From: an uncultured delta proteobacterium
GTDB lineage: Bacteria > Desulfobacterota > Binatia > UBA9968
Assembly: GCA_963816145.1 (NCBI GenBank)
Contig: CAWFJP010000014.1
Span: 128,001 to 192,000 of the forward strand
DNA length: 64,000 nt
Direction: 5' to 3'
Positions 2,238 to 63,636 of this stretch are shown one piece after another (within the stretch, counting starts at the first letter, position 1; each line of letters opens with the position of its first letter). A model generated the notes under the pieces. That model was not told the origin of the DNA and searched no databases. It saw nothing but the letters and a program-made list of their open reading frames with translations. Position numbers and translations under genes: made by a program.

Positions 2238-2279
2238 GTTCCAATCGTTCCAGCCGTTTCAGTTGTTCCAATGGTTTTA
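2238..2279. repeat. 9-bp-period GTTCCAnnn intergenic array (family C)
   Basis: GTTCCA/GTTTCA units at 2238, 2247, 2256, 2265, 2274. Confidence 0.85.
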
Positions 2280-2291
2280 GGAGGAATACGA

Positions 2292-3359
2292 ATGAGATTG
2301 CGAGTTGTCTGCGTTTTGTTTGTTGCTGCGGTTCAATTGTTAGTAGCTTCGCATCTGTTTGCCCAGGAAACGGCGGGCGCGCTACTTGCCAAGCTTGCCA
2401 AACTTTCTCCCGAAGCGCGGCAAAAGGCGCTTATCGATGGTGCGCGCGCGGAGAAAGAGGTTACTTTCTATAGCTCGCTGCAGCCGCCGCAAGTTGAACC
2501 TTTTTCACGCGCGTTTCAGAAGCGCTACCCGTTCATCAAGGTGAATGGTGTGCGAATTTCCGGTAGCAAGGTGGTGGTGCGGATTCAATCGGAGATGAAC
2601 GCCGGCAAGTCTCTTGTCGATGTGATCAATGTCTCCGGCGAGGAAGCGGCGGCGCTGAAAAAAGTCGGCACCCTCGACCCCTACCTTTCCCCGCAGCGCG
2701 AATTTTATCCGCCGTCGGCCAAAGACAAGGAAGGCTATTTTACCGCGATGTCCTTCCTAACGATGGTTTTGGGCTACAACACTAATTTGGTTAAACGCGC
2801 CGATGTGCCGAAGAGTTACGATGATCTGCTGCAGCCCAAGTGGAAAGGGCAAATGTATCTCGACAACGAGGCCTATGACTGGTTCGCCGTCCTGCTCAAG
2901 CACTTTGGCCGGGAGAAGGGGCTGCAATATATGCGTGCCTTGGCGAAACAGGATCTGACCATGATGCGCGGACGCACGGCCCAAGCCCAGCTTCTGGTGG
3001 CCGGGGAACGTTCCATCGGCATCGTTCAATCCGGTAACACCATGTTGGATTATAAAGCCAAGGGCGCGCCGGTCGACATGTCGATCTTGGACCCGTATCT
3101 CGCGTTGTCGAATTCCATCATGCTCGCCAAGCACGCGCTCCATCCCCACGCCGCAGCGCTATTGATCGATTGGTCGCTGTCGGAGGAGGGGCAGAGCGTG
3201 GTGACGAGCTTTGGCCGCGTCGTGTTGCGCAAAGGCGTCAAACAAAGATTCCCCGAGCTGATGGAAAAAGAGCTGTTCGTCGCCGACGGAGAATTCCTCG
3301 GGCCGATCTTAGAGGATAGCGCCAAGGAGTTCCGGCAGATTTTTCTAGGCGGACGATAA
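2292..3359 (+). CDS. Extracellular solute-binding protein (Fe3+/thiamine/AfuA-like cluster)
   Basis: Start moved to ATG 2292 after AGGAGG; 'YNTNLVK..VPKSYDDLLQPKWKG', 'HPHAAALLIDWSLSEEGQ'. Confidence 0.85.
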   Translation: MRLRVVCVLFVAAVQLLVASHLFAQETAGALLAKLAKLSPEARQKALIDGARAEKEVTFYSSLQPPQVEPFSRAFQKRYPFIKVNGVRISGSKVVVRIQSEMNAGKSLVDVINVSGEEAAALKKVGTLDPYLSPQREFYPPSAKDKEGYFTAMSFLTMVLGYNTNLVKRADVPKSYDDLLQPKWKGQMYLDNEAYDWFAVLLKHFGREKGLQYMRALAKQDLTMMRGRTAQAQLLVAGERSIGIVQSGNTMLDYKAKGAPVDMSILDPYLALSNSIMLAKHALHPHAAALLIDWSLSEEGQSVVTSFGRVVLRKGVKQRFPELMEKELFVADGEFLGPILEDSAKEFRQIFLGGR

Positions 3360-3533
3360 GATAGCTGTTCGGTTATTTTATCATTCATCTAGCCGGCATA
3401 GTTGAACCCGGCTGGGCCGTCGTCTCGTCGCCTATCGAATGAGTGGGCCACCCGAGCTGATTAACTGTCATAGCCCCACCCGAAGTCCCGGGTATGATGC
3501 GCGTTGCAAGAATCGCTTGTTCAAAAGCTCTGC

Positions 3534-4764
3534 TCAAGATCGAATTGGTTCAGGAGCTTCGACCAGGAGTCTGCGCACGATCCAGATGAAGGCTCCTGTG
3601 AGCACCAGATTGAGCGCGAGGCTTAAGGCCGCCACGGTGACGATCGGTCCACCGATACCGTAGCTGATACTGACGACCAGCACGCCGGCACCGACTTCGC
3701 CCCGCGGCCACATGCCGACGGCCAGGGCTAGTCGCTCCCGCCATTTGGCTTCTCGACGGTAACAGACCGCCGGAAACATTTTCCCTAAGATTCGCCAACA
3801 CAGTTACAACTAGTACATGAAAGAGCAGGGCGCTGATTTCCAGTGCGGGTTGCTGCGCGGTTACCGTATTGGCCGCATTGGCGCCGCCCGCACCAGCGAA
3901 TACGCTGGCCATACTGAGTCCAACACAGATCATGAAGACGCCCGAAATAATCGCCGCGACTCTCTGTTCGCCGGGATCTTCGGGTCCTTCTTGATGGCCC
4001 TCGACGGCATCGTCTCGATGGGGATCCGCGCCGGCGGGCCGCCGCATCATGCAGCCCAACACAAAGGCGGGCAGCAGCACTTCGATATGTATCGGCACTT
4101 CGTCGTTAATCATACTGGCGCCAATGGAAACCAATTCGCAGACCATCGAGATCGCGACGGCGTAAGTCAAAACCCAAGGCCAACTCGTCGGGATCGACCA
4201 CTGATGCAGATAGCGCCAGGCCAGCCAAAGCATGGCGATCATGAGGAGTACGACGGCGCCAAGTTGCCATGCGATACCGACGATCATCATCTTTAGCGGT
4301 ATCATTAAGAGGACGGTGTCGAGATCGTCAAATATCGCCAATACGCGCGCTTTGCGAAATAACCAGGTTCCGCTCAAGCCGGCGGCGGCTAGCATGGAAA
4401 ACAATACTCCGGCCGAGGTTGGGGCCGAAAACCGCCCGGCGAGCAAAATCTCGGTCCAGGCGGTCCATGACGCCCAGGCTGTCGCGGGCAGCATGACGAA
4501 GACAAAGTAGAGGCTAACAAAGACCCATGGAAATGCCGCCGCGGTCATGGCGACAAGGTAATCCCAGCCGTAGAGTTTCAGGTTCGATTTGTCGACCTCG
4601 AACTCATAGCCGACGTGGATCATGATAAATCCAAGACCGGTCAAGGTTAGAAAGCTGACGATACCATCGACGATCGCGAAATTCGAACCGGCCAGTTCCG
4701 GCAAAAACTTGGCAGTAACGAGACCGAAGACGAGAAGCGCTGAGAACGCTGCGACTTTCTTCAC
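3534..4764 (-). pseudogene. Cation:proton antiporter (Na+/H+ exchanger-like) split by a 1-nt frameshift at ~3787
   Basis: GTG 4764; multi-TM ORF with 'APTSAG', 'LAIFDDLDTV'. The C-terminal 'GKMFP...GMWPRGEVGAGVL' continues in the +1 frame (ORF 3534..3779). Confidence 0.75.
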
Positions 4765-4772
4765 GGGCGGCC

Positions 4773-5357
4773 TTATGTTGCAGCAGCCATGTCGTCGGGC
4801 TTGGCAGCGTATCTGACGTAGGCAATCGCCAGCGTCAATAGCGTTAGCGGCAGGATGAACTCCAACATGATCGCGCTGAAGGCAGGAAGGCTGTCGTGCG
4901 CTTGCGCTTTCAAGATGAGATAGGCGGTGTACGCGCCGTAGTAGAGCAGGAACAGAGCGCCTTCCCAGCGTGCGATCAGATGTCCCGTGAGAAAGATCGG
5001 CGCGCAAGCGAGCGCGACCGCGATCATGATCGGAATATCGAAAGTCAGCGCCGCTGGCGCGACGTTGATTCCCTCGGGAGTGACCGCGCTCGAAAGACCA
5101 AGAACCGCGAGGACGTTGAATATATTGCTGCCGACGACATTGCCAAGCGCGATATCAGCCTGGCCGGAGTAGGCCGACTCGACGCTGACCGCCATTTCGG
5201 GTGAACTGGTGCCGTAGGCGACAACCGTCAAGCCTATCACCAAAGGGGAAATTCCAGCGATCCCTGCCAGTCGGGAAGCACCGCGCACCAAGAAGTCGGC
5301 GCCGACGGTAAGCAGTAGTAATCCGCCGCAAAGAAATAAGATTTGTTCTAAGCTCAT
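4773..5357 (-). CDS. Ca2+/cation antiporter (YrbG/CaCA family), half-length, one alpha-repeat only
   Basis: 'GLTVVAYGTSSPEMAVS...GNVVGSNIFN' followed directly by typical C-terminal 'FDIPIMIAVALAC..IARWEG'; 194 aa. Confidence 0.75.
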   Translation of the reverse strand: MSLEQILFLCGGLLLLTVGADFLVRGASRLAGIAGISPLVIGLTVVAYGTSSPEMAVSVESAYSGQADIALGNVVGSNIFNVLAVLGLSSAVTPEGINVAPAALTFDIPIMIAVALACAPIFLTGHLIARWEGALFLLYYGAYTAYLILKAQAHDSLPAFSAIMLEFILPLTLLTLAIAYVRYAAKPDDMAAAT

Positions 5358-5370
5358 CGAATAACCGTCA

Positions 5371-5387
5371 TTATTGATTTCTAACTA
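5371..5387. promoter_or_regulatory. Candidate LysR/NhaR operator copy upstream of antiporter operon
   Basis: TTATTGATTTCTAACTA, 14/17 identical to the palindrome at 6183-6199. Confidence 0.45.
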
Positions 5388-5446
5388 AATTAACTGGCTG
5401 GGTGGTGTCGATGGTTCGCGACTGCGGCTGTTGAATCTCTTCGGGT

Positions 5447-5635
5447 TGATTCCCCGCAGCTTGCTGCGTCAGAGATATCGCTAAGCCACCGTCCGTCATT
5501 CCCGCATGTTTTTAGCGGGAATCTAGGCGAATCCGGAACTGGACCCCCGATAAAGGCATTCGGGGGTGACGAGATTCGGAATCGTTCACATGCTGGGCTT
5601 TCGATACCCCGTAGCTTGCTGCGGGGTAGTTCATT
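5447..5635. repeat. Nested REP-like mosaic: two CCCCGyAGCTTGCTGCG hairpins flanking an inverted GTCA-type REP pair
   Basis: CCCCGCAGCTTGCTGCG 5452-5468; GTCATTCCCGC..GCGGGAATC 5495-5523; GGACCCCCGA..TCGGGGGTGAC 5541-5570; ATACCCCGTAGCTTGCTGCGGGGTAGTTCA 5604-5633. Confidence 0.75.
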
Positions 5636-5661
5636 TTCCAGCCTTTGGAGTATTCCTGGCT

Positions 5662-6087: not shown

Positions 6088-6182
6088 TTGCCGTTCTCCT
6101 CTTTAGGGGGAAATCTCGCTGTCGAGTGGCAACATAATCATGGCCCGATAGTTTGACAAATTCATAATTTCGACTTAATCAT

Positions 6183-6199: not shown

Positions 6200-6210
6200 C
6201 CGTCAGAACC

Positions 6211-8702: not shown

Positions 8703-8740
8703 GTTCCAGCGGTTCCAAAGGTTCCAATAGTTCCATTCGG
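8703..8740. repeat. 9-bp-period GTTCCAnnn array (family C)
   Basis: GTTCCA at 8703, 8712, 8721, 8730. Confidence 0.85.
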
Positions 8741-12119: not shown

Positions 12120-13211
12120 ATGGCAGACACACCGGTCACGGCGGAGGAAGAAGTTAGGGAGCGGGTTGCCTATATCTCGCCTTATGAGCAGTGGAAAAAG
12201 TCGGAAGGCTTGCAGACCTATCGGGGGTTGGCGATCAAAAATCTTTACGATCTCGAGCTGTCGCCGTGGAAATCGAGCGGCGATGGTTTGGCAGCGTTTC
12301 TCAATCTCGAGGGCACCGGTGGGTTTAACGATTCCTACGTCGCCGAGATTCCGCCGGGGAAATCGCTCAAGGCGCACCGCCACTTGTTCGAAGAAACCAT
12401 CTACATTCTCAAAGGCCAGGGCGCGACCTCGGTGTGGATCGATCCGAGCCGCAAGGAAACCTTCGAGTGGCAGGAGGGCAGTTATTTCTCTATACCCATG
12501 AATGCCTGGCATGAACATCATAACGCGTCCGGTTTGGATTCGGCGCGCTACATCGCCATGACCAGCGCACCGCGGGTCATCGACACCTTCAACAACTATG
12601 AGTTCGTTTTCGAGAATCCATTTGTTTTCAAGGATCGATACAACTCGGAAGAGGGTTACTTCAAGCAGGCGGCGCCGGCGCAGCAGTGGGCGACCAATTT
12701 TGTCGCCGACGTGCGCGTCTGCGAGACTTACTCCGGCGGCTTCGACCGCGGCGGCGGCGCCAAGAGCACGGTGTTTCGCATGGTCAAGCAGACCGTCAAG
12801 TCACATGTGTCGCACTGGGGCGTCGGTGCCTACAAGAAGGCGCACCGCCATGGCCCGGGAATTCACGTATTAATCATTCGCGGTACCGGCTACTCGATCC
12901 TTTGGCAGGAGGGCAAACCCTTGGAGCGCGTCGAGTGGGGCCCCGGCAGCGTGTTTGTGCCGCCGGAAATGTGGTTTCACCAGCATTTCAATGGCAGCGC
13001 CGAGCCGGTGTTTTTTCTCGCCATCGGCTGGGGCAGTGATAAACCGAAAGCCGGCGGTAAGGCCTATGTCTATAAAAGCGTCAAAGATGGCGGCGATCAG
13101 ATCGAGTACGAAGATGAAGATCCCAAGATCCACGCCGAATTCGAAACCGCGATGAAAAAGGCCGGCGCGCGCTGCAAAATGGATTATCATCCGCACTGCA
13201 CGATGAAGTAG
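12120..13211 (+). CDS. Bicupin protein
   Basis: AHRHLFEE..GQG..AWHEH and AHRHGPG..GTG..WFHQH. Confidence 0.8.
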   Translation: MADTPVTAEEEVRERVAYISPYEQWKKSEGLQTYRGLAIKNLYDLELSPWKSSGDGLAAFLNLEGTGGFNDSYVAEIPPGKSLKAHRHLFEETIYILKGQGATSVWIDPSRKETFEWQEGSYFSIPMNAWHEHHNASGLDSARYIAMTSAPRVIDTFNNYEFVFENPFVFKDRYNSEEGYFKQAAPAQQWATNFVADVRVCETYSGGFDRGGGAKSTVFRMVKQTVKSHVSHWGVGAYKKAHRHGPGIHVLIIRGTGYSILWQEGKPLERVEWGPGSVFVPPEMWFHQHFNGSAEPVFFLAIGWGSDKPKAGGKAYVYKSVKDGGDQIEYEDEDPKIHAEFETAMKKAGARCKMDYHPHCTMK

Positions 13212-13250
13212 GCTGGGGCTGAAGATCGACGATGGAGGATTGAGGATGGC
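13211..13250. repeat. 7-bp-period GATnGAG array (family D, single arm) overlapping RBS/start
   Basis: GATCGAC GATGGAG GATTGAG GATGGC at 13224-13250. Confidence 0.6.
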
Positions 13251-14426: not shown

Positions 14427-14517
14427 CCCCCCCTTGAGAAAGGGGGGGCAGGGAGGATTTATCGAGTGCGGAATCTGCAGAATAAATCCCCCTGGATCCC
14501 CCTTAACCAAAGGGGGA
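14427..14517. repeat. Inverted pair of CCCCCTT-n-AAGGGGG REP-like hairpins
   Basis: CCCCCCCTTGAGAAAGGGGGGG..GGATTT / AAATCC..CCCCCTTAACCAAAGGGGG. Confidence 0.8.
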
Positions 14518-15721: not shown

Positions 15722-15732
15722 CCGGAGAACAC

Positions 15733-15773
15733 GTTCCAGTCGTTTCAAACGTTCAAGCCGTTCAAATCGTTGA
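15733..15773. repeat. 9-bp-period GTTCAA/GTTCCA array (family C)
   Basis: Units at 15733, 15742, 15751, 15760, 15769. Confidence 0.8.
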
Positions 15774-15868: not shown

Positions 15869-15950
15869 TCACCACGAAGGACACGACGAGCACGAAGTTC
15901 GGAATCTTAATCGTCCGATACCTTCGTGTCCTTCGTGATCTTCGTGGTGA
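15869..15950. repeat. Periodic palindrome family A: (CACGAAGnn)3-TTCGG-loop-CCGA-(CTTCGTGnn)3
   Basis: Direct reading; near-identical copies at 18321, 21246, 54368, 57127. Confidence 0.95.
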
Positions 15951-18246: not shown

Positions 18247-18320
18247 GGGAAGCTTCGATCATTGCGGTAGGAGTGTGACAAAGTCAATTGCGTGAAATAC
18301 AAGATATCGGAGAGATTCCT

Positions 18321-18399
18321 TCACCACGAAGGCACGAAGAGCACGAAGTTCGGAATCTAATTTTCCGAAACCTTCGTGTCCTTCGTGCCTTCGTGGTGG
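18321..18399. repeat. Periodic palindrome family A
   Basis: CACGAAG at 18325, 18333, 18342; CTTCGTG at 18372, 18381, 18389. Confidence 0.95.
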
Positions 18400-18510
18400 A
18401 TCCTCTGTTTCGTCCACCACAGCTGCCTACTGGTAGTACAAATTTCTCGTTGCAAACTTTCTGGAGTCCTGACAGAGTGAGGCCGTTTTGCCGACGGGAG
18501 GAGTGAATTT

Positions 18511-20259
18511 ATGACGATGCCAAACAAGACCGTGCCGGTTTCCACCGGCGCCGAGGCGTTTCTCGCGCAGATGCGCGCGCTCGGTTCGGTGCGTTACATG
18601 TTCGCCAACACCGGCACAGATCATGGTCCGTTGATCGAGGCGATGGCGCGGACGGCGGGCGAAGATCCGCGCGAGATTCGGCCCATCGTGGTGCCGCACG
18701 AGCAGGCGGCGGTATCGATGGCCCATGGTTATTACAACGTCACCCAACAGCCGCAGATGGTGCTGGTGCACACGCTGCCGGGCACGGCCAATGCTCTCGG
18801 CGGCGTCATCAACGCGGCGTCGGCCAACGTGCCGCTGTTTCTTTGCGCTGGGCGCACGCCGATCACCGAGGGCGAGCTGCGCGGCGGCAAGAGCCAGAAC
18901 ATTCACTGGCGTCAGGAATCGCGCGATCAAGGCGCTGTCGTCCGCGAATTCGTCAAGTGGGATTATGAAATTCGCACCAATCAAAACCTCGCCGCGGTAG
19001 TCGCGCGCGCCTACAAGATCGCCATGAGCGAGCCGCGCGGCCCCGTCTATATGACGCTGCCGCGCGAGTGGTTGGCCGAAGCGATGGAATCGACGCAGGT
19101 GTTTGCGCCGGACGCGCTGGCGCCGGCGAGTAAGACCCAAGCCGATCAAGCGTCGTTGGAGAAAACCGCCGACTGGCTGATCGCCTCCGATAGTCCGTTG
19201 ATCGTCACCAAGTATCTCGGCCGCAACCCCGAAGCGGTGCAGTCGTTGATCGAGTTGAGCGAGCTGTTGGCGATCCCCGTCGTGCAACAAATGACCTACG
19301 TCAATTTCCCCACTGACCATCCACTGCACTTGGGCACCCAGGTGACGAAATATGTGCGCAACGCGGACATGTTGTTTTTCATCGACACCGACGTGCCGTG
19401 GGAGCCGCCCAACCGCAATGTGTTGCGCGACGGTGTGAAGATCGTTCACCTCGAGCGCGATCCGCTGTTCACCGGCATTCCCGGTTGGGGGTTTCCCGCT
19501 GATTTGCCGGTGAGCGGTTGTTCCGAGGTCTCGCTGCCGGTGCTGAACGCAATCATCCGAAACAAGCTCAATGGCGGCGCGGTGACGCAAGCGAAATTGG
19601 ACGAGCGGCGCAAACAAACCGAAGCGGAACATCAAGTCATGATCCGCGAGATGGATGCCAGCGTCGAAGCGGTGAAAAATCAGTCGCCGATTCATCCGTA
19701 TTGGTTGTCGAAGTGCATCGCCGATGCGATGGACGATAAGACGATCATCGCCAATGAAACGATTACTTCGAAGCTCGCCGAGGTGATTCACTTGAATCGG
19801 CCGGGCTCGATGTTCAACACGCCGCTTGCCGGTCATCTCGGCTGGGGACTAGGCGCGGCGATCGGCATGAAGTTGGGAAATCCGGACGCCACCGTCATCG
19901 CCGCCGAAGGCGACGGTTCCTACATGTTCTGTGCGCCGACGGCCTGTCATTTCACCGCGCAGAAATATCAGATCCCATTTCTGACGGTGATCTATAACAA
20001 CCAGGTGTGGAACGCGAGTTTGAATGCAGCGCGCGGCCTCTATCCCGATGGCGTGGCAGCCAGGACGCGTAACTTTCCCGGCACCGATCTGACGCCGTCG
20101 CCCAACTTCGAGCTGACGGCGCAAGCCTGCGGCGCTTATGCGGCGCGAGTGGAAGACCCGGCGGCGTTGGCGGATGCGCTGGCGAAGGCGCTCAAAGTGG
20201 TGAAGGATGAAAAACGCCAGGCTCTGCTCAATGTAATCTGCAAAAATCCGCTGGCGTAA
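18511..20259 (+). CDS. Thiamine-diphosphate-dependent enzyme (ALS/benzoylformate decarboxylase-like)
   Basis: 'PHEQAAVSMAHGY', ThDP motif 'GDGS...NN'. Confidence 0.9.
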   Translation: MTMPNKTVPVSTGAEAFLAQMRALGSVRYMFANTGTDHGPLIEAMARTAGEDPREIRPIVVPHEQAAVSMAHGYYNVTQQPQMVLVHTLPGTANALGGVINAASANVPLFLCAGRTPITEGELRGGKSQNIHWRQESRDQGAVVREFVKWDYEIRTNQNLAAVVARAYKIAMSEPRGPVYMTLPREWLAEAMESTQVFAPDALAPASKTQADQASLEKTADWLIASDSPLIVTKYLGRNPEAVQSLIELSELLAIPVVQQMTYVNFPTDHPLHLGTQVTKYVRNADMLFFIDTDVPWEPPNRNVLRDGVKIVHLERDPLFTGIPGWGFPADLPVSGCSEVSLPVLNAIIRNKLNGGAVTQAKLDERRKQTEAEHQVMIREMDASVEAVKNQSPIHPYWLSKCIADAMDDKTIIANETITSKLAEVIHLNRPGSMFNTPLAGHLGWGLGAAIGMKLGNPDATVIAAEGDGSYMFCAPTACHFTAQKYQIPFLTVIYNNQVWNASLNAARGLYPDGVAARTRNFPGTDLTPSPNFELTAQACGAYAARVEDPAALADALAKALKVVKDEKRQALLNVICKNPLA

Positions 20260-20270
20260 CTCCCACTTCA

Positions 20271-20428
20271 TCCTCCCCCGCTATGCGGGGGAGGAAAGAG
20301 GAGGGGGATCGGCCGCAAAGCATGCAAAAGACGCAAAGTGGAACGAAGTATTCTTTCCACCACGAAGGTCACGAAGGACATGAAGTTTAGAAAATTAACT
20401 ATCCGAACCCTTCGCGCTCTTTGTGGTA
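20271..20428. repeat. Mosaic: GC hairpin + family B (CGCAAAG) arm + degenerate family A
   Basis: TCCTCCCCCGCTATGCGGGGGAGGA 20271-20295; CGCAAAG units 20314-20338; CACGAAG units 20357-20428. Confidence 0.8.
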
Positions 20429-20532
20429 AATGATCTCTGTGAGCAGCGCAGCAATGGCTTGCTTGCGCGTGGTTTTGACCATCGGCCGCCGACACGGAAA
20501 CAAGCGGGGTATAGAGTTAGTCGAGGTGAACT

Positions 20533-21240: not shown

Positions 21241-21245
21241 GGATC

Positions 21246-21327
21246 TCACCACGAAGATCACGAAGGACACGAAGGGTTCGGAAAAATATTAATCCGAACT
21301 TCGTGCTCTTCGTGTCCTTCGTGGTGA
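21246..21327. repeat. Periodic palindrome family A (opposite orientation)
   Basis: Nearly the reverse complement of 15869-15950. Confidence 0.95.
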
Positions 21328-21361
21328 TCAAGGAATTTAACAATTAGGAGCAGCTGCGGAC

Positions 21362-22351
21362 ATGGCGAACAAACCGAAAATCACTTTCTCGACCAATCCG
21401 AATCCGCGCAATCGCGCGCTCATCGACGGACTGATCCCGGTCGACGGTTACGATCTGGAATACGTCGGTGACAAATACTCGCCCGGCGAAATGCATTATC
21501 GTTTCGTCCAGGGCGAATTCGATATCGCCGAGATGTCGACAGCGACCTTGATGCGCGCCAAGGAAAAGGGCAAGCGTTTCTTGGCCTTGCCGGTGTTCTT
21601 CCAGCGCGGGCCGCGCCAGCGCAATATTTTTCACTGCGCCGGCAAGGTTAATCACCCGAGTGAACTTAAAGGCAAACAGATCGGCGCCTTTCGTTACGGC
21701 GCCACGGCGGTGTCCTGGGCGCGCGGTTATCTGCTCGACGAGCATGGCATTAAGACTACCGATGTCGGTTGGTTCGTGTCGGGACAGGAAGTTTACATCG
21801 GCAACGAACTGCCGGTGAAGGTCGAGCGGCTCGATCCGCCGCCGCCGTTCGGCCAAGAGAAGTCGCATTTGTCCCGGCTGTTGAGCGAAGGCAAGCTCGG
21901 GGCCGCATTGGTAGCAGGAGATTCGGGCTACACGGGCTTGTTCGGCGGCGGCTCGCTGCCGGGCGCGATGGGGCAATTCCCCGGTGTGAAGCCGCTGTTC
22001 GACGATACTGAAGAAATTGTCCGCTACGTCAAACGGACGCAGATCTATCCGATCATCCATATCATGGCGATCAACGAGGAGACTGCGGAGAAATATCCCG
22101 ACCTGGCGGCCAAACTGATCGAAGCGTTTCGGGAAGCGAATCGACTGGCGCCGAGGTATCTGACGGCAGCGCAGGCGGAAGGTTATGCGAAGGAGCGCGA
22201 CGTATTGGGGTATGATCCCTATGCCGGCGTATTGACGGAGGCGGATAAGAAATCTTTGCACGCTCTCAACCGCTACCAGATCGAGCAGGGTTTGGTGAAG
22301 AAAGAGCTGCCGATCGAGAGCTTGTTCGTCAAGGAAGCGTTCACAATGTAA
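21362..22351 (+). CDS. 4,5-dihydroxyphthalate decarboxylase-like (SBP-fold, no signal peptide)
   Basis: 'FDIAEMS', 'ALPVF', 'WARG.L.DEHG', 'IYPIIH'. Confidence 0.75.
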   Translation: MANKPKITFSTNPNPRNRALIDGLIPVDGYDLEYVGDKYSPGEMHYRFVQGEFDIAEMSTATLMRAKEKGKRFLALPVFFQRGPRQRNIFHCAGKVNHPSELKGKQIGAFRYGATAVSWARGYLLDEHGIKTTDVGWFVSGQEVYIGNELPVKVERLDPPPPFGQEKSHLSRLLSEGKLGAALVAGDSGYTGLFGGGSLPGAMGQFPGVKPLFDDTEEIVRYVKRTQIYPIIHIMAINEETAEKYPDLAAKLIEAFREANRLAPRYLTAAQAEGYAKERDVLGYDPYAGVLTEADKKSLHALNRYQIEQGLVKKELPIESLFVKEAFTM

Positions 22352-22425
22352 GGCTGAAGTTCGAAGGATGAAGGCTGAAGTTCTCGATCTCCTTTTCATC
22401 CTTCCGCCCTCCGACTTCATCCTTT
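22351..22425. repeat. 7-bp-period inverted array (GAAG/CTTC; family D)
   Basis: GAAG at 22356, 22363, 22370, 22377; CTTC-like at 22394, 22401, 22408, 22415, 22422. Confidence 0.85.
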
Positions 22426-26400: not shown

Positions 26401-26433
26401 ACTCGTGCCTCAAGCCTCGCGCCTCATGCCTTC
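26401..26433. repeat. 7-bp-period CCTCnnG array (family D, single arm)
   Basis: ACTCGTG CCTCAAG CCTCGCG CCTCATG. Confidence 0.65.
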
Positions 26434-27547: not shown

Positions 27548-27614
27548 TGGAACATCTGGAACCCCTGGAACGATTGGAACCGTTCCAAAAGTTCCAATCG
27601 TTCCAGCCGTTCCA
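27548..27614. repeat. Perfect dyad of family C: (TGGAACnnn)4 / (GTTCCAnnn)4
   Basis: TGGAAC at 27548, 27557, 27566, 27575; GTTCCA at 27582, 27591, 27600, 27609. Confidence 0.95.
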
Positions 27615-34949: not shown

Positions 34950-35040
34950 GTTCTAGATAACCGGGCCGGTGCTGTCAAGCTGCGTGCGGAAAAGATGCGT
35001 GCGGAAAAGATTGACACTTCCCCGGCGATTCTGTTAGCAG
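34950..35040. promoter_or_regulatory. Back-to-back sigma70-like promoters separated by a 15-bp tandem duplication
   Basis: TGTCAA 34973-34978 (minus-strand TTGACA, 17 nt, TAGAAC); TGCGTGCGGAAAAGA x2 at 34981-35010; TTGACA 35011-35016. Confidence 0.55.
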
Positions 35041-42045: not shown

Positions 42046-42130
42046 CACCGCGAAGTCACAGAGCTCGCAGAGTCTGGAATTATCTTAATCATAAACCTGT
42101 GACTCCCCGTCCTCGGTGCCACTGCGGTGA
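42046..42130. repeat. Diverged family-A-like periodic palindrome
   Basis: CACCGCGAAGTCACAGAGCTCGCAGAG ... CTCGGTGCCACTGCGGTG. Confidence 0.55.
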
Positions 42131-50084: not shown

Positions 50085-50093
50085 AATTTGACC

Positions 50094-50158
50094 GTAAGGG
50101 GTGAAGGGTTAGGGGTTAGGGGTGGGGACGCCTTTCGCCTCACCCTTTACGCTTTACG
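50094..50158. repeat. 7-bp-period inverted array (GTTAGGG/CTTTACG; family D)
   Basis: Left units 50094, 50101, 50108, 50115, 50122; right units 50131, 50138, 50145, 50152. Confidence 0.8.
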
Positions 50159-51297: not shown

Positions 51298-51339
51298 GTT
51301 TAAAACATTCAAGCCGTTCAAAATGTTCATATCGTTTCG
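51298..51339. repeat. 9-bp-period GTTCAA array (family C)
   Basis: Units at 51298, 51307, 51316, 51325, 51334. Confidence 0.7.
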
Positions 51340-51396
51340 AACCTCGGATGTTCGGCAAGTCGGCGGCAATCGCATATCTCAGTGGATGGAGCTTAA

Positions 51397-52384: not shown

Positions 52385-52458
52385 GTTGGGTATGAGGAGT
52401 AAGGGGTTAGGCGTTTCGGATGAGTGGGCGCCTTACGCCTCACCTTTTACCCCTGACT
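52385..52458. repeat. 7-bp-period inverted array (family D) between convergent genes
   Basis: ATGAGGA GTAAGGG GTTAGGC ... CCTTACG CCTCACC TTTTACC CCTGACT. Confidence 0.8.
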
Positions 52459-54289: not shown

Positions 54290-54367
54290 TGGTTACGGGG
54301 ATAGCGGATTGACTTGTAGCTTTCAAGGCAAAAGTAGGTCGCTACGCTTAAGGAGAAGAGTTGGTCT

Positions 54368-54448
54368 TACCACGAAGGGCACGAAGAGCACGAAGTTCGG
54401 AATTCTATTTATCCGAACCCTTCGTGTCCTTCGTGATCTTCGTGGTGA
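54368..54448. repeat. Periodic palindrome family A
   Basis: 3+3 CACGAAG/CTTCGTG units. Confidence 0.95.
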
Positions 54449-54531
54449 AGGCCTCCTTTCTCACTGGTTGACCGAAACGGATGGCAAGTGTTATTCGCCT
54501 ATGGTACGAGGAATTCAGAAAGGAATTGGCA

Positions 54532-55327: not shown

Positions 55328-55357
55328 GTTCAAGGTTCAAAGTTCAATGTTTCGGAA
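55328..55357. repeat. GTTCAA array with 7-bp period
   Basis: GTTCAA at 55328, 55335, 55342, then GTTTCGGAA. Confidence 0.7.
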
Positions 55358-57047: not shown

Positions 57048-57126
57048 TCGGCAGAATAGCTATCAGTTTTGCGCAACATGCATATCCTTGCACGGTCGGG
57101 CTACAGCCATATGAGAAATATTATTT

Positions 57127-57198
57127 TCACCACGAAGATCACGAAGTGCGGAAGTAATCTTGACCGAAACCTTCGCGTCCTTCGTGCCTTCGTGGTGA
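57127..57198. repeat. Periodic palindrome family A (left arm partly decayed)
   Basis: CACGAAG 57131, 57140; CTTCGyG 57171, 57180, 57188. Confidence 0.9.
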
Positions 57199-57247
57199 AG
57201 GGATCTTCACAGCAAACACGATAATCCAATTCTATTAAGAGGTTGTT

Positions 57248-58174
57248 ATGAGTATAAAACTCACCGGGATTCTTTCCGCCAACGTTACGCCGTTCAAAGA
57301 TAACTACGATCTTGACGAAGCCGGGCTGCGCAAGCTGATCCGGTATCAAGCCAAGCCTGCCGGCATCAACGCCATCGTCTGCAACGCCGGCGCTGGGGAG
57401 GGCGCGACGCTGACGCGCGAGGAGCGCGTGCGCTGCATTGAGATCATCCGCGAGGAGATTCGTCCCGAGCAACATGTCGTAGCCGGCATCGAAGCGTTGT
57501 CGACGCGGGAAGCGATTCAACAGACCCGCGAGGCCAAAGCAGCTGGAGCGGCGGCGATTATGTTGACGCCGCCGCATATTTACGATTGGGATTCGCGGAC
57601 CAATCCGGAATTCGCCGTGCAGTATTTTCACGATATCGCCAAAGCCGTGGATATCCCGATCACGATTTTTCATTATCCGGCGGCGGTCACTTCCGGTTAC
57701 ACACCGGACACGGCAGTTCGCATCGCTCGGGAGGTCGACAATGTCACCGCGGTCAAAGTTGCCAGCGGCGCCAACATCCGGCGCTACGAGCAAGTGCTGC
57801 GCGGCATGCGCGCGCTGCCGCGCCATGTCTCGGTGCTTGCGACTTCGTCGCTGTTCCAACATTTCGTCACCGGTGGCGACGGCGCGTTGACCGGGTTTGC
57901 CAATTTCGCGCCGGATTTTTGTTGCGATCTTTTCAAAGCGGTCGGCGACGGCAAGCTCGACGAGGCGCGCCGCTTGCACGAGATCAACTGGGCGCTGGAA
58001 GCCGCAGTCTACAAGGCACCCAACGTGTACAAGCATAGCCGCTACAAAGTCGCTGCTTACTTCGCCGGCTTGATGGACAACTTCATCGTGCGGGCGCCGC
58101 AGGTGCCGGTGCCGGAAGGCGAAGTGAAATTGATTCACGACGCCATGGCCAAGTTGGGAATGGTTAAACGATAA
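57248..58174 (+). CDS. DapA/DHDPS-NAL family class I aldolase
   Basis: 'VTPF....LDE', 'GE..TL..EER', Schiff-base Lys in 'VTAVK'. Confidence 0.85.
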   Translation: MSIKLTGILSANVTPFKDNYDLDEAGLRKLIRYQAKPAGINAIVCNAGAGEGATLTREERVRCIEIIREEIRPEQHVVAGIEALSTREAIQQTREAKAAGAAAIMLTPPHIYDWDSRTNPEFAVQYFHDIAKAVDIPITIFHYPAAVTSGYTPDTAVRIAREVDNVTAVKVASGANIRRYEQVLRGMRALPRHVSVLATSSLFQHFVTGGDGALTGFANFAPDFCCDLFKAVGDGKLDEARRLHEINWALEAAVYKAPNVYKHSRYKVAAYFAGLMDNFIVRAPQVPVPEGEVKLIHDAMAKLGMVKR

Positions 58175-58180
58175 GAGTGA

Positions 58181-58213
58181 GATAAGGATGAGGGATGAAG
58201 GCGGAAGGATGAA
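58181..58213. repeat. 7-bp-period ATGAAGG array (family D, single arm)
   Basis: GATAAGG ATGAGGG ATGAAGG CGGAAGG ATGAA. Confidence 0.75.
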
Positions 58214-59219: not shown

Positions 59220-59318
59220 TCTCCCGCCAAGGCGCAAAGACGCAAAGTTAAACCGGGAAAGAAATTAACCGCAAAAGCAATCCGAGGTAGGGGCGTATGG
59301 CGTACGCCCGCGGGGCGG
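59220..59318 (+). repeat. Composite: family B arm (CGCCAAG/CGCAAAG) + GTAG-type REP
   Basis: Units 59225, 59233, 59241; GTAGGGGCGTATGGCGTACGCCC 59287-59309. Confidence 0.8.
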
Positions 59319-59343
59319 TGTTGTGCGGCTTTTCCCTCGACGC

Positions 59344-60297: not shown

Positions 60298-60319
60298 GGT
60301 TTCTCCCTCTGTGACATTT

Positions 60320-60394
60320 GTCTAGGGTTTCGCGTCTAGGGTCCAGGGTTATGGCACCGGAACACGGGACGCAAGACCCGAGACGCTAGACGCG
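60320..60394. repeat. 7-bp-period inverted array (GTCTAGG/nnnAGAC; family D)
   Basis: Left 60320, 60327, 60334, 60341; right 60364, 60371, 60378, 60385. Confidence 0.8.
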
Positions 60395-60397
60395 TTC

Positions 60398-62448: not shown

Positions 62449-62458
62449 TGGGAAGTTC

Positions 62459-62476
62459 CTTGCGTCTTGGCGCGAG
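62459..62476. repeat. Family B fragment
   Basis: CTTGCGTCTTGGCGCGAG, matches 63616-63635. Confidence 0.55.
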
Positions 62477-62492
62477 TTTTTTCGCGGTCGAA

Positions 62493-63500
62493 TTACGTAT
62501 CCAGCAGGCTTTCCGCGAACAGTTCTTCGACTTTCATCTGGCGCGGCGTCAAGCCCTGCTCGTGGGAAAAGCCGATGATCATGTCGAGCATGGCGCGATT
62601 GGCTTTGATGCCAAAGGGAAATGGGTCGTCGCCGATGAGCTCGCGGGTCTGAGCCAAGTATTCGGGGCCGAAGATCAGCGCCGCGGGGATTTGTTCGGTT
62701 AGCCTTTCATTCGCAAACGCTTTCGCTTGGACAAATCCATCGTAAAGCTTGGCGGCGAGCCAAGGGTATTGGCGGTGGATGTCGCCGCGGATGATGTAAG
62801 CATGATTGACAGGCAAAAAGCCGTGCTTGCGGTAGAAGCGGGCACCCTCGGCCATGCGGTCGGGAAACAGCGGCCGGATCTTGCTCCAGTCGTCGCCACC
62901 TATGCGGCTCGATCGGTCCAACGCGTTGGCCTGCAGCACCCATGGACTCGCGACATGGGCCACGTCCAGTTCGTGCGCCAACAGGCTTGATTTGAGGCTT
63001 TTGCTCTTGTCGATGCGGCTGAATGAAATTCCCGGCGGCGGCTTGAAGCCGGTAGCACCGCCATGGCTCATCTCTTCGCTTCGCTCCATGTACCAGTGAA
63101 TCTGGTATTGCGACACGCCGAAATCGTGTTCGAGGATGCCGCGCAGCCACAACGCCGCGGTTTGCTGATACTCGGCAACGCCCAAACGCTTGCCCTTGAG
63201 GTCTTGCGGTTTCTCGATGCCTGAGTCGACGTGATAGGACAGCTCGGTTTGAAACAAACGGCGGCTCGGAAAGGCCGGCAGCGCGATCATGTCGGCTCCT
63301 TGCGAGCGGGCGATCAGATACGAGGACATCGACATCTCGGCGACTTCGAATTCGCCGAACTTGAGCTGACGCCAAAATGTTTCGGCGGGATGCGAGTAAG
63401 TTGGGATGAGACTTACGCCCTCGACCTCGATTGTGCCGTTCATCAGCGGCTCGACCCGTTCGTTGAAGGCGGAAATGAATCCTAGGGTGAGTTGTTCCAT
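62493..63500 (-). CDS. 4,5-dihydroxyphthalate decarboxylase-like protein (tandem paralog)
   Basis: Long shared segments with 61435..62448. Confidence 0.8.
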   Translation of the reverse strand: MEQLTLGFISAFNERVEPLMNGTIEVEGVSLIPTYSHPAETFWRQLKFGEFEVAEMSMSSYLIARSQGADMIALPAFPSRRLFQTELSYHVDSGIEKPQDLKGKRLGVAEYQQTAALWLRGILEHDFGVSQYQIHWYMERSEEMSHGGATGFKPPPGISFSRIDKSKSLKSSLLAHELDVAHVASPWVLQANALDRSSRIGGDDWSKIRPLFPDRMAEGARFYRKHGFLPVNHAYIIRGDIHRQYPWLAAKLYDGFVQAKAFANERLTEQIPAALIFGPEYLAQTRELIGDDPFPFGIKANRAMLDMIIGFSHEQGLTPRQMKVEELFAESLLDT

Positions 63501-63560
63501 GGTATCTCGATTATAGTCTGTATCGGCTGGGCAAATTCTGTCGCCGGCCGAGCCCCGCTT

Positions 63561-63636
63561 CCCCGCCCCAGGGCGTATGCCATACGCCCCTACAAAGATT
63601 TCCGAACTTTGCGCCCTTTGCGTGCTTGGCGCGAGA
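63561..63636 (-). repeat. Composite: family B arm + GTAG-type REP (inverted copy of 59220-59318)
   Basis: Reverse complement: TCTCGCGCCAAGCACGCAAAGGGCGCAAAGTTCGGAA..GTAGGGGCGTATGGCATACGCCC. Confidence 0.8.

Follow-up and report, generated by a model that had tools for sequence, protein, structure and literature searches.

The short-period repeat arrays found between the genes of the stretch of DNA analysed here (the window, 64,000 nt) are probably the arms of two families of intergenic gene cassettes of ~0.5 kb, present in the window as gene-less hairpins or half-arms. Three CRCRRAG cores spaced at 8-9 nt (families A and B) would form the arms of cassettes whose sole gene encodes a GxxExxY PD-(D/E)XK nuclease of ~124 amino acids, and four to five 7-mers or GTTCMA 8-9-mers (C and D) would form the arms of cassettes carrying a four-helix-bundle protein of ~120-140 amino acids. 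The latter cargo is the "23S rRNA intervening-sequence"/S23p family, related to DGR Avd. The element type is widespread and apparently undescribed, and we found no general description of it in print.

We counted TRF arrays of at least 2.8 copies in the 44 called gaps of the window (7,485 nt) and in 20 dinucleotide shuffles. The gaps contain 20 arrays of 7-9 nt period versus 0.15 in the shuffles (4, 3 and 13 arrays at periods 7, 8 and 9, with a shuffle mean of 0.05 each). Genome-wide (5,217 gaps, 1.05 Mb), these periods yield 327, 248 and 432 arrays, ~1,000 in all, against fewer than 10 in shuffles (three shuffles, each with 0-4 arrays per period); periods 10, 11 and 12 yield just 5, 1 and 2. 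Gene coordinates come from a crude gene caller made for this analysis, and the assembly, from a soil bacterium, has an estimated contamination of 6.7%. These counts confirm the intergenic array system reported in a preliminary description of the window. Arrays of this kind could also be plain simple repeats made by slippage (STRR or heptamer SSRs), some of them forming G-quadruplexes and pairing in inverted orientation by chance. Unit number at an orthologous array does differ by species (3 versus 4 GTTCAA units), and heptamer arrays favouring four units follow stop codons in Xanthomonas and Nostoc (PMC4692102). However, we regard this explanation as scarcely credible: the periods are confined to 7-9 nt with next to nothing at 10-12, G-tract repeats are a minority among the 224 different canonical units of this one genome, the order of the arms is fixed, and identical linkers inside one arm occur in 0% versus 14% expected, the opposite of a slippage product. 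An inverted partner lies within 200 nt for 598 of 1,022 arrays, and under a stricter partner test none of 1,023 control pairings scored.

At a TRF score of at least 30, 15 of the 24 sites of the preliminary description are supported; the remaining nine, which can be seen in the sequence, have two or three copies or are degenerate. The sites are listed below, with the strand for those that have one.

15869..15950: A gene-less hairpin in a convergent gap (dG -46.4, z -6.8), with three CACGAAG units, an inner TTCGGA/TCCGA stem and three CTTCGTG units
18321..18400: A gene-less hairpin in a divergent gap (dG -59.2, z -12.8)
20357..20427: A hairpin, partly decayed, 3 + 2 units (z -3.0; TRF)
21246..21327: A gene-less hairpin, inverted with respect to the other copies, 6 nt past a stop codon (z -9.4)
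42046..42130: decayed CRCRRAG-type hairpin, a relative of A, with mixed CGCGAAG/CACAGAG/CGCAGAG units (z -1.9)
54368..54447: A gene-less hairpin in a divergent gap (z -8.5)
57127..57198: A hairpin, 2-3 + 3 units (z -5.1; TRF)
20313..20338, + strand: B solo half-arm of CGCAAAG-type units, partnerless (z -0.3)
59220..59252, + strand: B solo half-arm, TCTCCCGCCAAGG CGCAAAG CGCAAAG (TRF 59225-59247)
62459..62476, - strand: B 3'-arm-type remnant, two units only, weak (sequence, folding)
63600..63636, - strand: B solo 3'-arm-type array with TTCCGAA ahead of it (sequence, folding)
2238..2276, + strand: C solo array, GTTCCA, period 9, 11 nt past a stop codon (TRF)
8703..8735, + strand: C solo array, then TTCGGA (TRF, folding)
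15731..15771, + strand: C solo array, GTTCMA, 12 nt past a stop codon (TRF)
27548..27614: C hairpin in the rarer TGGAAC-first order (z -4.8)
51298..51340, + strand: C solo degenerate array in a divergent gap (sequence, folding)
55328..55351, + strand: C solo array, period 7-8, then TTTCGGAATCGGAGG (TRF)
13211..13250, + strand: weak 7-8 nt periodicity filling a 34-nt stop-to-start gap, solo (no TRF row)
22350..22424: 7-mer hairpin, TGAAGG-type, abutting a stop codon (z -2.3)
26402..26431, - strand: solo 7-mer array, GCCTCAN (TRF, folding)
50093..50158: 7-mer hairpin, GGGGTNA-type (z -2.6; TRF)
52388..52452: weak 7-mer hairpin, TAAGGGG-type (z -0.8)
58181..58205, + strand: solo GGATGAN-type array filling a 34-nt gap (TRF 58170-58192)
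60320..60394: 7-mer hairpin, GTCTAGG/GGGTC-type (z -6.1)

The window contains gene-less hairpins and half-arms only, with no filled cassette. Of the four families proposed earlier, D comprises several distinct 7-mer units rather than a single family. The architecture of an array followed by its inverted copy applies to most of A, with a strong hairpin at 6 of 7 sites (z -3.0 to -12.8), and to part of D, which forms hairpins at 22351, 50094 and 60320, a weak one at 52385 and solo arrays at 13211, 26401 and 58181. The four B sites are all unpaired half-arms, and in C only 27548 is a hairpin, the other five sites being solo arrays. The GCCTCAN unit at 26402..26431 is the reverse complement of TGAGGCN, which brackets four-helix-bundle genes in relatives, and the GGGGTNA-type unit at 50093..50158 brackets such genes elsewhere. 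The TTCGG(A) ends said to be common to several families were recovered: the share of arrays with TTCGGA/TCCGAA no more than 24 nt from an end is 28% for A, 13-16% for B, 10% for C and 5% for the rest, against ~1.2% expected from its intergenic frequency. No transposase or nuclease family was detected by Pfam among the 55 called window proteins, 11 of which have no family, in agreement with the preliminary description.

The link to cargo genes suggested in the preliminary description proved correct in this genome, where the same core families bracket both kinds of gene. The genome has eight strong and two fragmentary PF05635 genes and five PF13366 genes (NCBIfam names TIGR02436 and TIGR04256), and 13 small genes are bracketed by arrays, five encoding GxxExxY PD-(D/E)XK proteins and eight the four-helix-bundle "23S IVS protein". 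The GxxExxY genes are flanked by CACGAAG (as at C14:434355-434729) and CGCAAAG (as at C29:152337), families A and B, and the four-helix-bundle genes by families C and D, with GTTCAA arrays at two genes of contig C15 and 7-mers at the remaining ones. A flank inverted-repeat score of at least 15 was reached by 9 of the 13 strong cassette genes versus 4 of 1,940 control small genes. All 15 of 15 cassette genes point in the same direction as the upstream host gene. As for the distances between arms, 124 pairs lie 20-30 nt apart, none at 150-300 nt and seven at 300-500 nt, and six of these seven enclose a cargo gene. A search for target-site duplications was negative (0-3 of 179), a point against the cassette reading.

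The position of the arrays admits another explanation, namely that they are RNA elements serving the host, stem-loops at 3' ends or between cistrons (stabilisers, processing or attenuation elements) that are kept by selection and in which small genes lodge. Arrays start a median of 18 nt 3' of a stop codon, and 429 lie nearer the stop codon versus 178 nearer the next start. Among gaps of at least 60 nt, 20% of the co-directional, 16% of the convergent and 6% of the divergent ones are occupied, so that all gap types contain arrays, as first noted, although unevenly. Folds are very stable, with z down to -12.8, and RNA-library contigs extend from a gene end into the arms, which is weak evidence. 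On the other hand, 55 divergent gaps are occupied despite the depletion, and a T-tract comes after 38 of 358 tails in family A and after 47 of 398 when all hairpins are taken together, compared with a background of 318-381 of 4,000; there is therefore no U-tract excess, as the lack of U-tracts reported previously had indicated. The 424 of 1,022 arrays (~41%) that are partnerless, and cannot fold with a partner, count against host RNA elements and also against the cassette reading.

The preliminary description also called the elements structure-defined, and in this wording the claim was not supported. Family A comprises 200 hairpins genome-wide, 135 of them with 3 + 3 units, and its covariance model matched at least 150 candidates (all 150 scored). 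Its cores are exact in 966 of 1,121 cases (86%), its loops are almost all unique, and we counted one compensated change, with 0.9 expected by chance, against 85 one-sided changes; no pair in the alignment (0 of 34) had changed on both sides. Paired inner linkers are complementary in only 1 of 128 hairpins versus 28% expected, which means that complementarity is avoided. Because cores are conserved, loops are not and compensatory changes were not found, the elements are defined by sequence rather than structure; the many unpaired half-arms point the same way. The missing compensation and the avoided complementarity also weigh against the host RNA explanation, which we consider unlikely overall.

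Hairpins keep the arm order of cassettes, in support of the cassette reading: CACGAA comes first in 109:0, CGCAAA in 16:0 and GTTCAA in 32:1, and among GTTCCA hairpins the TGGAAC-first order occurs in 8 of 36. However, dispersed A hairpins have an inner TTCGGA/TCCGAA stem that filled A cassettes lack, so the hairpins are not simple deletion products. We also observed nesting, with one element inside the loop of another.

Relatives show the same association. In the same genus, arms were found at 28 of 31 GxxExxY loci, plus a further 13 of 14, and at 33 of 34 four-helix-bundle loci; in other families of the phylum, at 21 of 29 loci. One orthologous gap is filled in seven genomes, has an internally deleted cargo in genome G008 and only arms plus 45 nt in G003, and contains an unrelated 8-mer hairpin in 12 genomes of other species. 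The site of the 18321 hairpin has an A element in G007 and family-B arms in G002, G003 and G004; that of the 21246 hairpin has A in G003, G004 and G008, other hairpins in G007, G017 and G018, and none in G014; and that of the 57127 hairpin has a CACGAAA-family hairpin in G002 and a decayed A in G004. The occupants of gaps thus change between genomes, and a cassette with its gene can degenerate at its site. Enrichment over shuffled DNA, presence/absence polymorphism and an associated gene family were all found, and the observation in the preliminary description is confirmed while its interpretation is partly supported.

Orthologues of the 54368 hairpin in G003 and G031 have the same cores but other linkers and another loop; in G002 the copy is split by ~190 nt, and in G004 it is decayed. 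In G002, G004 and G031 the 55328 array is conserved in the orthologous gap, where it has 3-4 units. Such persistence across species, cores intact, also fits a function for the host. Gene-less copies per congener genome range from 0 to 257, and their number does not simply track the presence of a filled copy, since G006 has two A-filled cassettes yet only eight triple arms, while G031 has 123 arms, with cores retained, and no A-type gene found in its 91%-complete assembly, which again suits host RNA elements. Across the phylum, at least six CRCRRAG triple arrays were present in 28 of 46 genomes with the gene versus 9 of 104 without it, and these nine count against the cassette reading.

The GxxExxY protein has D67, E77 and K79 invariant in 25 proteins, and its predicted structure (pLDDT 94.5) has a restriction-endonuclease-like fold (best Z 8.2, rmsd 3.2 Å over 98 aligned residues). 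The best 80 relatives of the A-type protein share 60-82% identity, and 48 of them have at least three exact CACGAAG in their flanks; proteins of this identity retain the exact core in more than 10 phyla. On the protein tree we counted 25 changes of core label, compared with 54.3 on average and never fewer than 48 after shuffling. Protein clade and core thus travel together across phyla; an identical 7-nt core recurring there only with one protein clade is a further argument against host RNA elements. Since the co-variation is at clade level, with only 1-4 independent switches from CACGAAG to another core, co-inheritance is inseparable from recognition. As for the other cargo, a structure of its S23p family has been solved for an X. 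campestris protein (2GSC); to our knowledge the four-helix-bundle protein has no known catalytic activity, which counts against the cassette reading.

REP/REPIN sequences with their RAYT genes (REPtrons), and BIMEs, combine many short palindromic intergenic repeats with a small enzyme gene, present in one or a few copies and bracketed by repeats. The cassettes resemble them in this combination, in nested modular mosaics and in copy numbers strongly different between relatives. Unlike them, the cargo has a PD-(D/E)XK fold or a four-helix bundle rather than being a Y1/HUH transposase, and the arms consist of 3-5 iterated 7-nt cores with variable linkers instead of a GTAG-headed hairpin. The genome-wide arrays, and the absence of arrays at the three Y1-transposase genes of this genome that were checked, uphold the earlier distinction from GTAG REPs. 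The ends of Mu and Tn7 have multiple subterminal transposase-binding sites, and MITEs are short non-autonomous derivatives. As there, direct copies of a short site at each end are inverted between ends and short derivatives outnumber the gene-bearing form, but here a DDE or other known transposase is absent, target-site duplication was not found and the elements measure only 80 nt (empty) or ~0.5 kb (filled). Cyanobacterial STRR are grouped with heptameric intergenic repeats as a further near system.

Among such heptamers, GGGAATC in Xanthomonas and GGGGAYT in Nostoc lie within 50 nt of stop codons and are transcribed, and Xanthomonas has 70-75 convergent (inverted) pairs per genome (PMC4692102). 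The 7-nt period, the proximity to stop codons and the scarcity between divergent genes are shared, but that study, as far as its text was available, treats one unit per genome as a G-quadruplex former with no cargo gene linked (PMC4692102), while here there are 224 canonical units, mostly other than G-tract repeats, and also 8-9 nt periods. In Geobacter metallireducens, "putative global regulator binding sites" of classes 1-3 and four-heptamer elements form opposite-strand pairs, each of 3-5 tandem units of 7-9 nt at variable distance, and CACGGAG-type cores resemble the class 2 consensus (PMC2700814). The arrays might accordingly be DNA-binding sites of host global regulators, with cores that recur at constant spacing and are conserved in sequence, and one Geobacter consensus, TCTCCGTS(Y), is near the reverse complement of CACGGAG/AACGGAG cores (PMC2700814). 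We judge this very improbable in view of the number of different units in one genome, the location after stop codons and not at promoters, the replacement of occupants by other families between sister species, and arms that co-vary with the enclosed gene and with no regulon. The Geobacter sites, compared by description only, were read as regulator sites, the available text leaving an enclosed GxxExxY/S23p gene unmentioned (PMC2700814).

The cassettes are also close to the 23S rRNA intervening sequences of Leptospira and Coxiella burnetii, in which a long inverted repeat encloses in its loop a gene of the four-helix-bundle cargo's family, PF05635/TIGR02436, and the ORF decays while the stem remains (PMC4990558). 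In Coxiella, three tandem heptamers, strain-variable in number, directly precede the S23p start codon, the first of them being the site of RNase III cleavage (PMC4990558). The cassettes differ in lying between protein-coding genes rather than in rRNA helices, in their hundreds of gene-less copies per genome and in a second, unrelated cargo, the GxxExxY nuclease, that shares the architecture. By analogy, the arms might pair in the transcript and be cut by RNase III, although we propose this tentatively, and insertion might, just as tentatively, favour hairpin loops or the spacer between stop codon and RBS. The iterated cores could well be recognised by a sequence-specific factor, for which the protein of the cassette itself is the likeliest candidate, and it is plausible, if somewhat less so, that multiplication or maintenance in trans, as in REPINs or MITEs, accounts for the compact gene-less hairpins. 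Our results suggest that the arrays between the genes are probably the two arms, usually gene-less, of tiny cassettes with a nuclease or four-helix-bundle gene.

The assembly that contains the window as positions 128001-192000 of its contig C14 (here G000; 7.82 Mb, 31 contigs, G+C 56.4%) was divided into genes and gaps with a simple hexamer-score caller (7,778 genes, 86% of the genome), a caveat that applies to every gene-relative figure given here. In the called gaps of the whole genome TRF detects 327, 248 and 432 arrays of at least 2.8 copies at periods 7, 8 and 9, compared with 5, 1 and 2 at periods 10, 11 and 12, and three dinucleotide shuffles of the gaps yield 0-4 arrays per period. The gaps of the window contain 4, 3 and 13 arrays at periods 7, 8 and 9, against 0.05 each in shuffles, so the enrichment over shuffled intergenic DNA is present both in the window and genome-wide. 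Merging of overlaps left 1,023 intergenic arrays, whose canonical units number 224.

Classes of the 1,023 intergenic arrays of G000
CRCRRAR-type, period 8-9: 356 arrays
GTTCMA-type: 292 arrays
Other 7-mers: 312 arrays
Other, periods 6, 8 and 9: 63 arrays

Arrays were found in 781 of the 6,770 called gaps. Counting gaps of at least 60 nt, they occupy 20% of the co-directional, 16% of the convergent and 6% of the divergent ones; in co-directional gaps the array starts a median of 18 nt past the stop codon, and arrays lie nearer the stop in 429 cases and nearer the next start in 178. An inverted partner is found within 200 nt for 598 of 1,022 arrays, and a stricter, ungapped pairing test retains 339 of 1,023, against none of 1,023 control pairings. 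Solo arrays show a moderate strand bias, with the purine-rich strand in the mRNA in 196 cases vs 120.

The preliminary description had listed 24 sites in the window, grouped as families A (CACGAAG), B (CGCAAAG), C (GTTCCA/GTTCAA, or GTTCMA) and D (assorted 7-mers), often with an inverted second arm. A TRF row is present at 15 of these 24 sites. Strong hairpins were confirmed at six of the seven family A sites, a single family C site forms a hairpin, every B site in the window proved to be a half-arm, and family D combines several different 7-mer units. Rfam at gathering thresholds returned no match over the entire window. Its 55 called genes are ordinary transport and catabolism genes (14 NMT1-like binding proteins, five Amidohydro_2, TctABC, MFS, cupins), and no transposase or nuclease is found among their proteins, as had been stated.

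Family A was analysed in most detail. A pattern search of G000 gives 200 paired elements, 135 of them with 3+3 cores, and a covariance model derived from the window's six copies has at least 150 candidate matches, at least five loci being matched on both strands. The element reads TCAC, three CACGAAG cores separated by 1-2 nt linkers, (G)TTCGGA, a loop of about 10 nt (83% A+T), TCCGAA(AC), the inverted cores and GTGA, within unconserved flanking sequence. With the bulge by the inner stem as strand marker, hairpin polarity is ambiguous in 117 elements and unbiased in the rest (<<: 12 vs 14; >>: 9 vs 18). G000 has 257 exact triple-CACGAAG arms, 25 congeners have 0-206, and the reversed control pattern gives none.

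Cores are exact in 966 of 1,121 cases and loops are nearly all unique. Among the core deviations 85 are one-sided and one is compensated (0.9 expected by chance), and RNAalifold finds both sides changed in 0 of 34 pairs of the A alignment. Exact cores with no excess of compensation indicate that the word itself is conserved, and not merely the pairing; the earlier proposal of a structure-defined class is therefore not supported in that form, as the cores are kept as sequence. The two linkers within one arm are identical in 0% of cases vs 14% expected, complementarity between the paired inner linkers is seen in 1 of 128 hairpins vs 28% expected, and diagonal linkers match in 26% vs 13-15% expected. 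The simplest idea is that selection may act against perfect long direct or inverted repeats. This linker avoidance is seen genome-wide, for example at window positions 15869, 18321 and 54368.

Similar arrays had been said to flank small GxxExxY and four-helix-bundle genes in other genomes. Both gene types are present in G000 and are flanked by the window's own array families. Profile searches gave eight strong and two fragmentary PF05635 matches (named by NCBIfam TIGR02436, "four helix bundle protein") and five PF13366 genes (TIGR04256, "GxxExxY protein").

Cargo genes of G000 (contig:position where a single gene is meant) and the arrays that flank them
C14:434355, GxxExxY gene: CACGAAG x3 / CTTCGTG x3
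C29:152337 and C1:306980, GxxExxY genes: CGCAAAG-type arrays
Two further GxxExxY genes: CACAGAG and AACGGAG
C15, two four-helix-bundle genes: GTTCAA 9-mers
Remaining four-helix-bundle genes: 7-mers TAGGCAA, GGGTNAA, GTTGAGA, TTAGTGA, GGGTTTC and GAGATNG

A flank inverted-repeat score of at least 15 is reached by 9 of 13 strong cargo genes in G000, compared with 4 of 1,940 other small genes. Seven of the eight strong PF05635 genes score at least 13.5, and array-built flanks are visible by eye at all five GxxExxY genes, three of which score at least 15. All cargo genes (15/15) point in the same direction as the upstream host gene, and the cargo often abuts the arms without a spacer. Across 26 genomes of the genus, inverted flanks were found at 33 of 34 PF05635 loci and arms at 28 of 31 plus 13 of 14 further GxxExxY loci (41 of 45); some cargo genes in the genus are fragments or are interrupted by stop codons. 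The GxxExxY cassette form, each of whose inverted arms has about three 7-nt cores spaced 8-9 nt apart, was seen at 21 of 29 loci in other families of the phylum and at 50 of 80 loci in named genomes of other phyla, these being the best 80 of at least 571 relatives. One unpublished genome, G005, contributes 2 of the 31 genus GxxExxY loci, 2 of the 34 four-helix-bundle loci, one of the seven filled orthologous loci described below, one row of the 25-protein alignment behind the structure model, and its entries in the genus tallies; none of the conclusions rests solely on it.

Distances between like arms in G000 are bimodal: 124 pairs are 20-30 nt apart, the range of 150-300 nt is empty, and of the seven pairs at 300-500 nt six enclose a cargo gene. 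The genes found between arms were GxxExxY and four-helix-bundle genes only, with no third cargo type in G000. Five more genes between like arrays 480-880 nt apart (cupin, cyclase, enoyl-CoA hydratase, hydrolase, CMD-like) were considered and rejected, being ordinary host genes with a separate hairpin at each end. The order of the arms in the hairpins is that of the cassettes (CACGAA-first 109:0; CGCAAA 16:0; GTTCAA 32:1; GTTCCA 28:8), which indicates that the window holds gene-less (hairpin) and half (solo arm) forms; there is no filled cassette within it, only the gene-less form. All four families of the preliminary description map onto two cargos within one genome. The hexamer TTCGGA/TCCGAA beside the inner arm ends is common to several families, at 4-20 times its background frequency, and is absent from filled A cassettes. 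Since this stem is carried by the dispersed hairpins and not by the filled copies, the hairpins appear to be a compact derivative lineage and not independent deletion products.

The 25 aligned GxxExxY proteins share invariant E27, Y30, Q48, D67, E77, K79, H88, Q91 and Y95 and so have an intact D...ExK nuclease motif. The confident AlphaFold model (pLDDT 94.5) resembles 3ijm (Z 8.2, rmsd 3.2 Å over 98 residues), the Cas4-family protein 4ic1 (Z 7.8), BpuSI (Z 7.8) and Hjc (Z 6.4), values that are middling and show a fold class only, the restriction-endonuclease-like one. A sequence search of solved structures gave no match (best E 0.83), and Foldseek with the model found none in the PDB at E <= 0.001.

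Within the genus, the clades of the protein track the core of the arms. On a tree of 131 proteins (114 labelled rows, 14 states) the core label changes 25 times, compared with 54.3 on average, and never fewer than 48, in 300 label shuffles. Independent core switches on the protein tree number one starred and four in all, so few that co-inheritance and recognition are statistically inseparable; the columns most associated with the core, F3, D4, S7, V10 and C13 of the N-terminal helix, are for the same reason merely top-ranked. The nearest named relatives of the window genome's protein among the listed matches are Candidatus Binatia MAGs (80-82% identity). The strongest finding is on A-type proteins of other phyla, relatives 60-82% identical being present in named genomes of Planctomycetota, Verrucomicrobiota, Acidobacteriota, Chloroflexota, Bacteroidota, Methylococcales, Desulfobacterota, KSB1, Nitrospinota, Paceibacterota and others. 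Flanks were read for the best 80 of at least 571 confirmed relatives, and 48 of the 80 loci carry at least three exact CACGAAG; across phyla these usually have the same CACC...GGTG outer boundary and differing linkers, and more distant proteins have CACAGAG, CACGGAG or CGCAGAG cores. Descent alone would not keep non-coding DNA identical between phyla, so this points to horizontal transfer of the cassette as a unit, selection on the word linked to the protein, or both. A phylum-wide sample was split by the presence of a GxxExxY gene: six or more CRCRRAG triple arrays were counted in 28 of the 46 genomes that have it and in 9 of the 104 that lack it, a concentration that associates the arrays with this gene family, subject to the non-independence of related genomes and to incomplete assemblies. 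Five candidate viral contigs gave one weak partial match, and there was no sign of phage carriage.

A comparison of orthologous gaps in relatives (G002-G035) revealed both presence/absence and replacement of elements among congeners.

Elements at gaps orthologous to those of the window (window coordinates)
18247-18516: A hairpin also in G007; family B arms at the same place in G002, G003 and G004; composite in G009
21241-21361: A hairpins that differ in unit number and loop in G003, G004 and G008
21241-21361: unrelated hairpins in G007, G017 and G018; none in G014
54290-54480: orthologous A hairpin in G003 and G031, cores identical, linkers and loops different
57048-57247: CACGAAA-family hairpin instead in G002

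The locus of the A-type cassette is filled in G000, G005, G006, G007, G009, G012 and G016. In G008 both arms are kept and the enclosed gene is internally deleted, in G003 both arms are left together with 45 nt, made up of the 5' leader and the final ~20 nt of the ORF, and G035 has a composite. A filled A cassette can thus decay in place, as seen in this deletion series at one locus. In 12 genomes an unrelated GGAGTRNT 8-mer hairpin takes the same interval between stop codon and RBS. Set against flank similarity, occupancy is patchy: the 8-mer hairpin is present in G031, G002 and G004, whose flanks are 88-91% identical to those of G000, and the cassette in genomes whose flanks are only 74-81% identical. 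The comparison of filled copies with gene-less copy number in 26 congeners, which bears on mobilisation in trans, was mixed, with G006 (two A-filled cassettes, only 8 triple arms) and G031 (123 arms, no A-type gene in a 91%-complete assembly) as counter-examples.

Nesting is seen as well: B elements lie in the loop of A arms, and B and C arms contain other palindromic modules, pointing either way, which looks like insertion into loops. A ~70-nt module, TGTCATTTCGACC ... GGGATGACGGG, that includes a GC hairpin is often found within B arms (C14:23376-23544 of G000 and others), in both orientations, and a whole B element lies inside one A element. In G002, the orthologue of window 54290-54480 (sequences L255/L265) has a ~190-nt repeat inserted within the first core, in the 5' arm of the A hairpin; it contains a GCCGGC-centred palindrome, and the same repeat type adjoins the PF05635 fragment at C5:239671 of G000. 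The gap at window 20260-20532 has ~2-3 kb of extra DNA with at least one gene in six congeners (sequences L028, L029 and L033-L036), bordered by GGAGTGAT-type and GTTCAA-type arrays and absent from G000 and G009.

Several other repeats were noted in the window. At 20260-20308, directly past a stop codon, CCCCC-rich arms surround GCGGGGGAGG in a palindromic module that recurs, nested in GTTCCA/GTTCAA arms, at some dozen loci elsewhere; one RNA-library contig lacks 20260-20300, a presence/absence variant. A further repeat type, a 35-nt inverted repeat with C and G runs around AAAGG, lies at 14428-14516, and a similar element fills the G018 orthologue of gap 21241-21361. The divergent gap upstream of the TctC-TctB-TctA operon has a 15-nt tandem repeat (34977-35011; 2.3 copies, 95% matches) that does not resemble the 7-9 nt arrays and is a possible regulator site. 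A 1,047-aa ORF at 30596-33739 has no Pfam family at E <= 1e-5 and is located in a stretch with strong A-over-T skew (0.14-0.26).

Three known kinds of element were weighed as the identity of these arrays. REPs and REPINs are, like them, dispersed palindromes, but are single, GTAG-headed and imperfect, and flank a Y1 (HUH) RAYT gene; here three to five cores (CACGAAG and others) are iterated, bounded in family A by TCAC...GTGA. G000 has seven PF01797 (Y1) matches, and the three ~165-aa genes inspected have IS200-like subterminal hairpins and no 7-9 nt arrays, in agreement with the earlier distinction from GTAG REPs. A MITE is an internal deletion of a transposase element, and an in-place deletion series was seen, but the inner stem of the dispersed hairpins is not in the filled copies and the cargo is no known transposase. 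Identical 2-8 nt flanks, expected of a MITE-type target-site duplication, occur at 0-3 of 179 A hairpins, and skipping the 4-nt TCAC/GTGA ends gives up to 10 matches at k=2, the chance level. Finally, T-tract frequency behind the hairpins equals background, as anticipated when they were said not to be simply Rho-independent terminators. REP/RAYT and intrinsic terminator were rejected on these grounds, and the elements do not appear to be classical MITEs. A separate hairpin family does exist in G000, a classical-looking REP family of GTAGGGGCG...CGCCCCTAC-type hairpins at window ~59290-59320 and 63570-63598, for which the octamer GTAGGGGC was counted 165 times over both strands of the genome; hairpins of this kind take the place of the A hairpin in G007 and G017.

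Other counterparts have been described piecemeal. Intervening sequences (IVS) of 23S rRNA with an S23p ORF share with the cassettes a PF05635/TIGR02436 ORF inside a long inverted repeat, but insert in helix 25 or 45 of the rRNA, whereas all ten PF05635 loci of G000 lie between called protein genes. In Coxiella, according to PMC4990558, the S23p ORF stands behind tandem heptamers, within an inverted repeat excised by RNase III. Heptamer arrays behind stop codons, with 70-75 convergent pairs, are described for Xanthomonas in PMC4692102, and paired sites of three to five units in Geobacter metallireducens, interpreted as regulator sites, in PMC2700814. G-quadruplex heptamers (Rehm et al. 2015; four or more tracts of at least 3 G at 7-nt spacing) correspond to a minority of units here (GGGGTNA-type, e.g. 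50093-50158), the commonest, CACGAAG, CGCAAAG and GTTCMA, having no G-tracts. PF13366 is listed in PMC3424549 as a family of unknown function with multiple transfers, and PMC8934634 has a single passing mention of GxxExxY. In the openly accessible literature we found no paper on a general gene-plus-iterated-arm cassette or on the GxxExxY cassette, nor one that joins these pieces.

We propose that the iterated cores are candidate binding sites of a sequence-specific factor that would travel with the cassette. Transposon ends with several binding sites have the same layout as the three to five inverted sites per arm. For CRCRRAG-type arms the only encoded candidate for this factor is the GxxExxY nuclease, and for 7-mer and GTTCMA arms it may be the four-helix-bundle protein, solved relatives of which are homopentamers (Lin et al. 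2006, as cited in PMC4990558). The compact hairpins of 80 nt would represent non-autonomous derivatives. The cargo points the same way as the host operon and often has no spacer to the arms, so that the arms should pair in the transcript, and we infer, by analogy with the Coxiella IVS, that RNase III may cut them and free the cargo message. The RNA evidence consists of assembled Logan metatranscriptome contigs (soil and sediment) with 5-7% of words, in which ends and strands are unreadable; family A arms recruit RNA-library contigs with many foreign flanks. Genomes G006 and G031, together with long-persisting orthologous hairpins, leave room for a host-level role.

Heptamer/STRR-type repeats, the Geobacter "global regulator site pairs" and rRNA IVS with an S23p ORF have been known separately and are still unexplained, as are two large orphan protein families, TIGR02436 and TIGR04256; all of these look like facets of one element type. 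With about 1,000 arrays distributed over so many gaps, operon spacers have been shaped by them, and transcript processing probably too, and in annotation the arrays account for many spurious small ORFs and mis-set gene starts. A 124-aa PD-(D/E)XK protein that accompanies the same 7-nt word in more than 10 phyla is a concrete and cheap target for biochemistry, which could show how the elements move and what S23p and GxxExxY proteins do. Tentatively, and as a possibility that we rate below its alternatives taken together, the GxxExxY and four-helix-bundle cassettes may form one new class of minimal selfish element of ~0.5 kb, whose single ~125-aa protein would read a 7-nt word iterated three to five times per inverted arm and which would insert in hairpin loops and stop-to-RBS spacers, the rRNA IVS being the special case of an rRNA helix loop and the 80-nt derivatives being mobilised or maintained in trans. 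If so, the long-unexplained heptamer/STRR-type repeats and "regulator-site pairs" of many phyla would be accounted for, and the correspondence between protein clade and core would be a readable recognition code of a tiny programmable nuclease.
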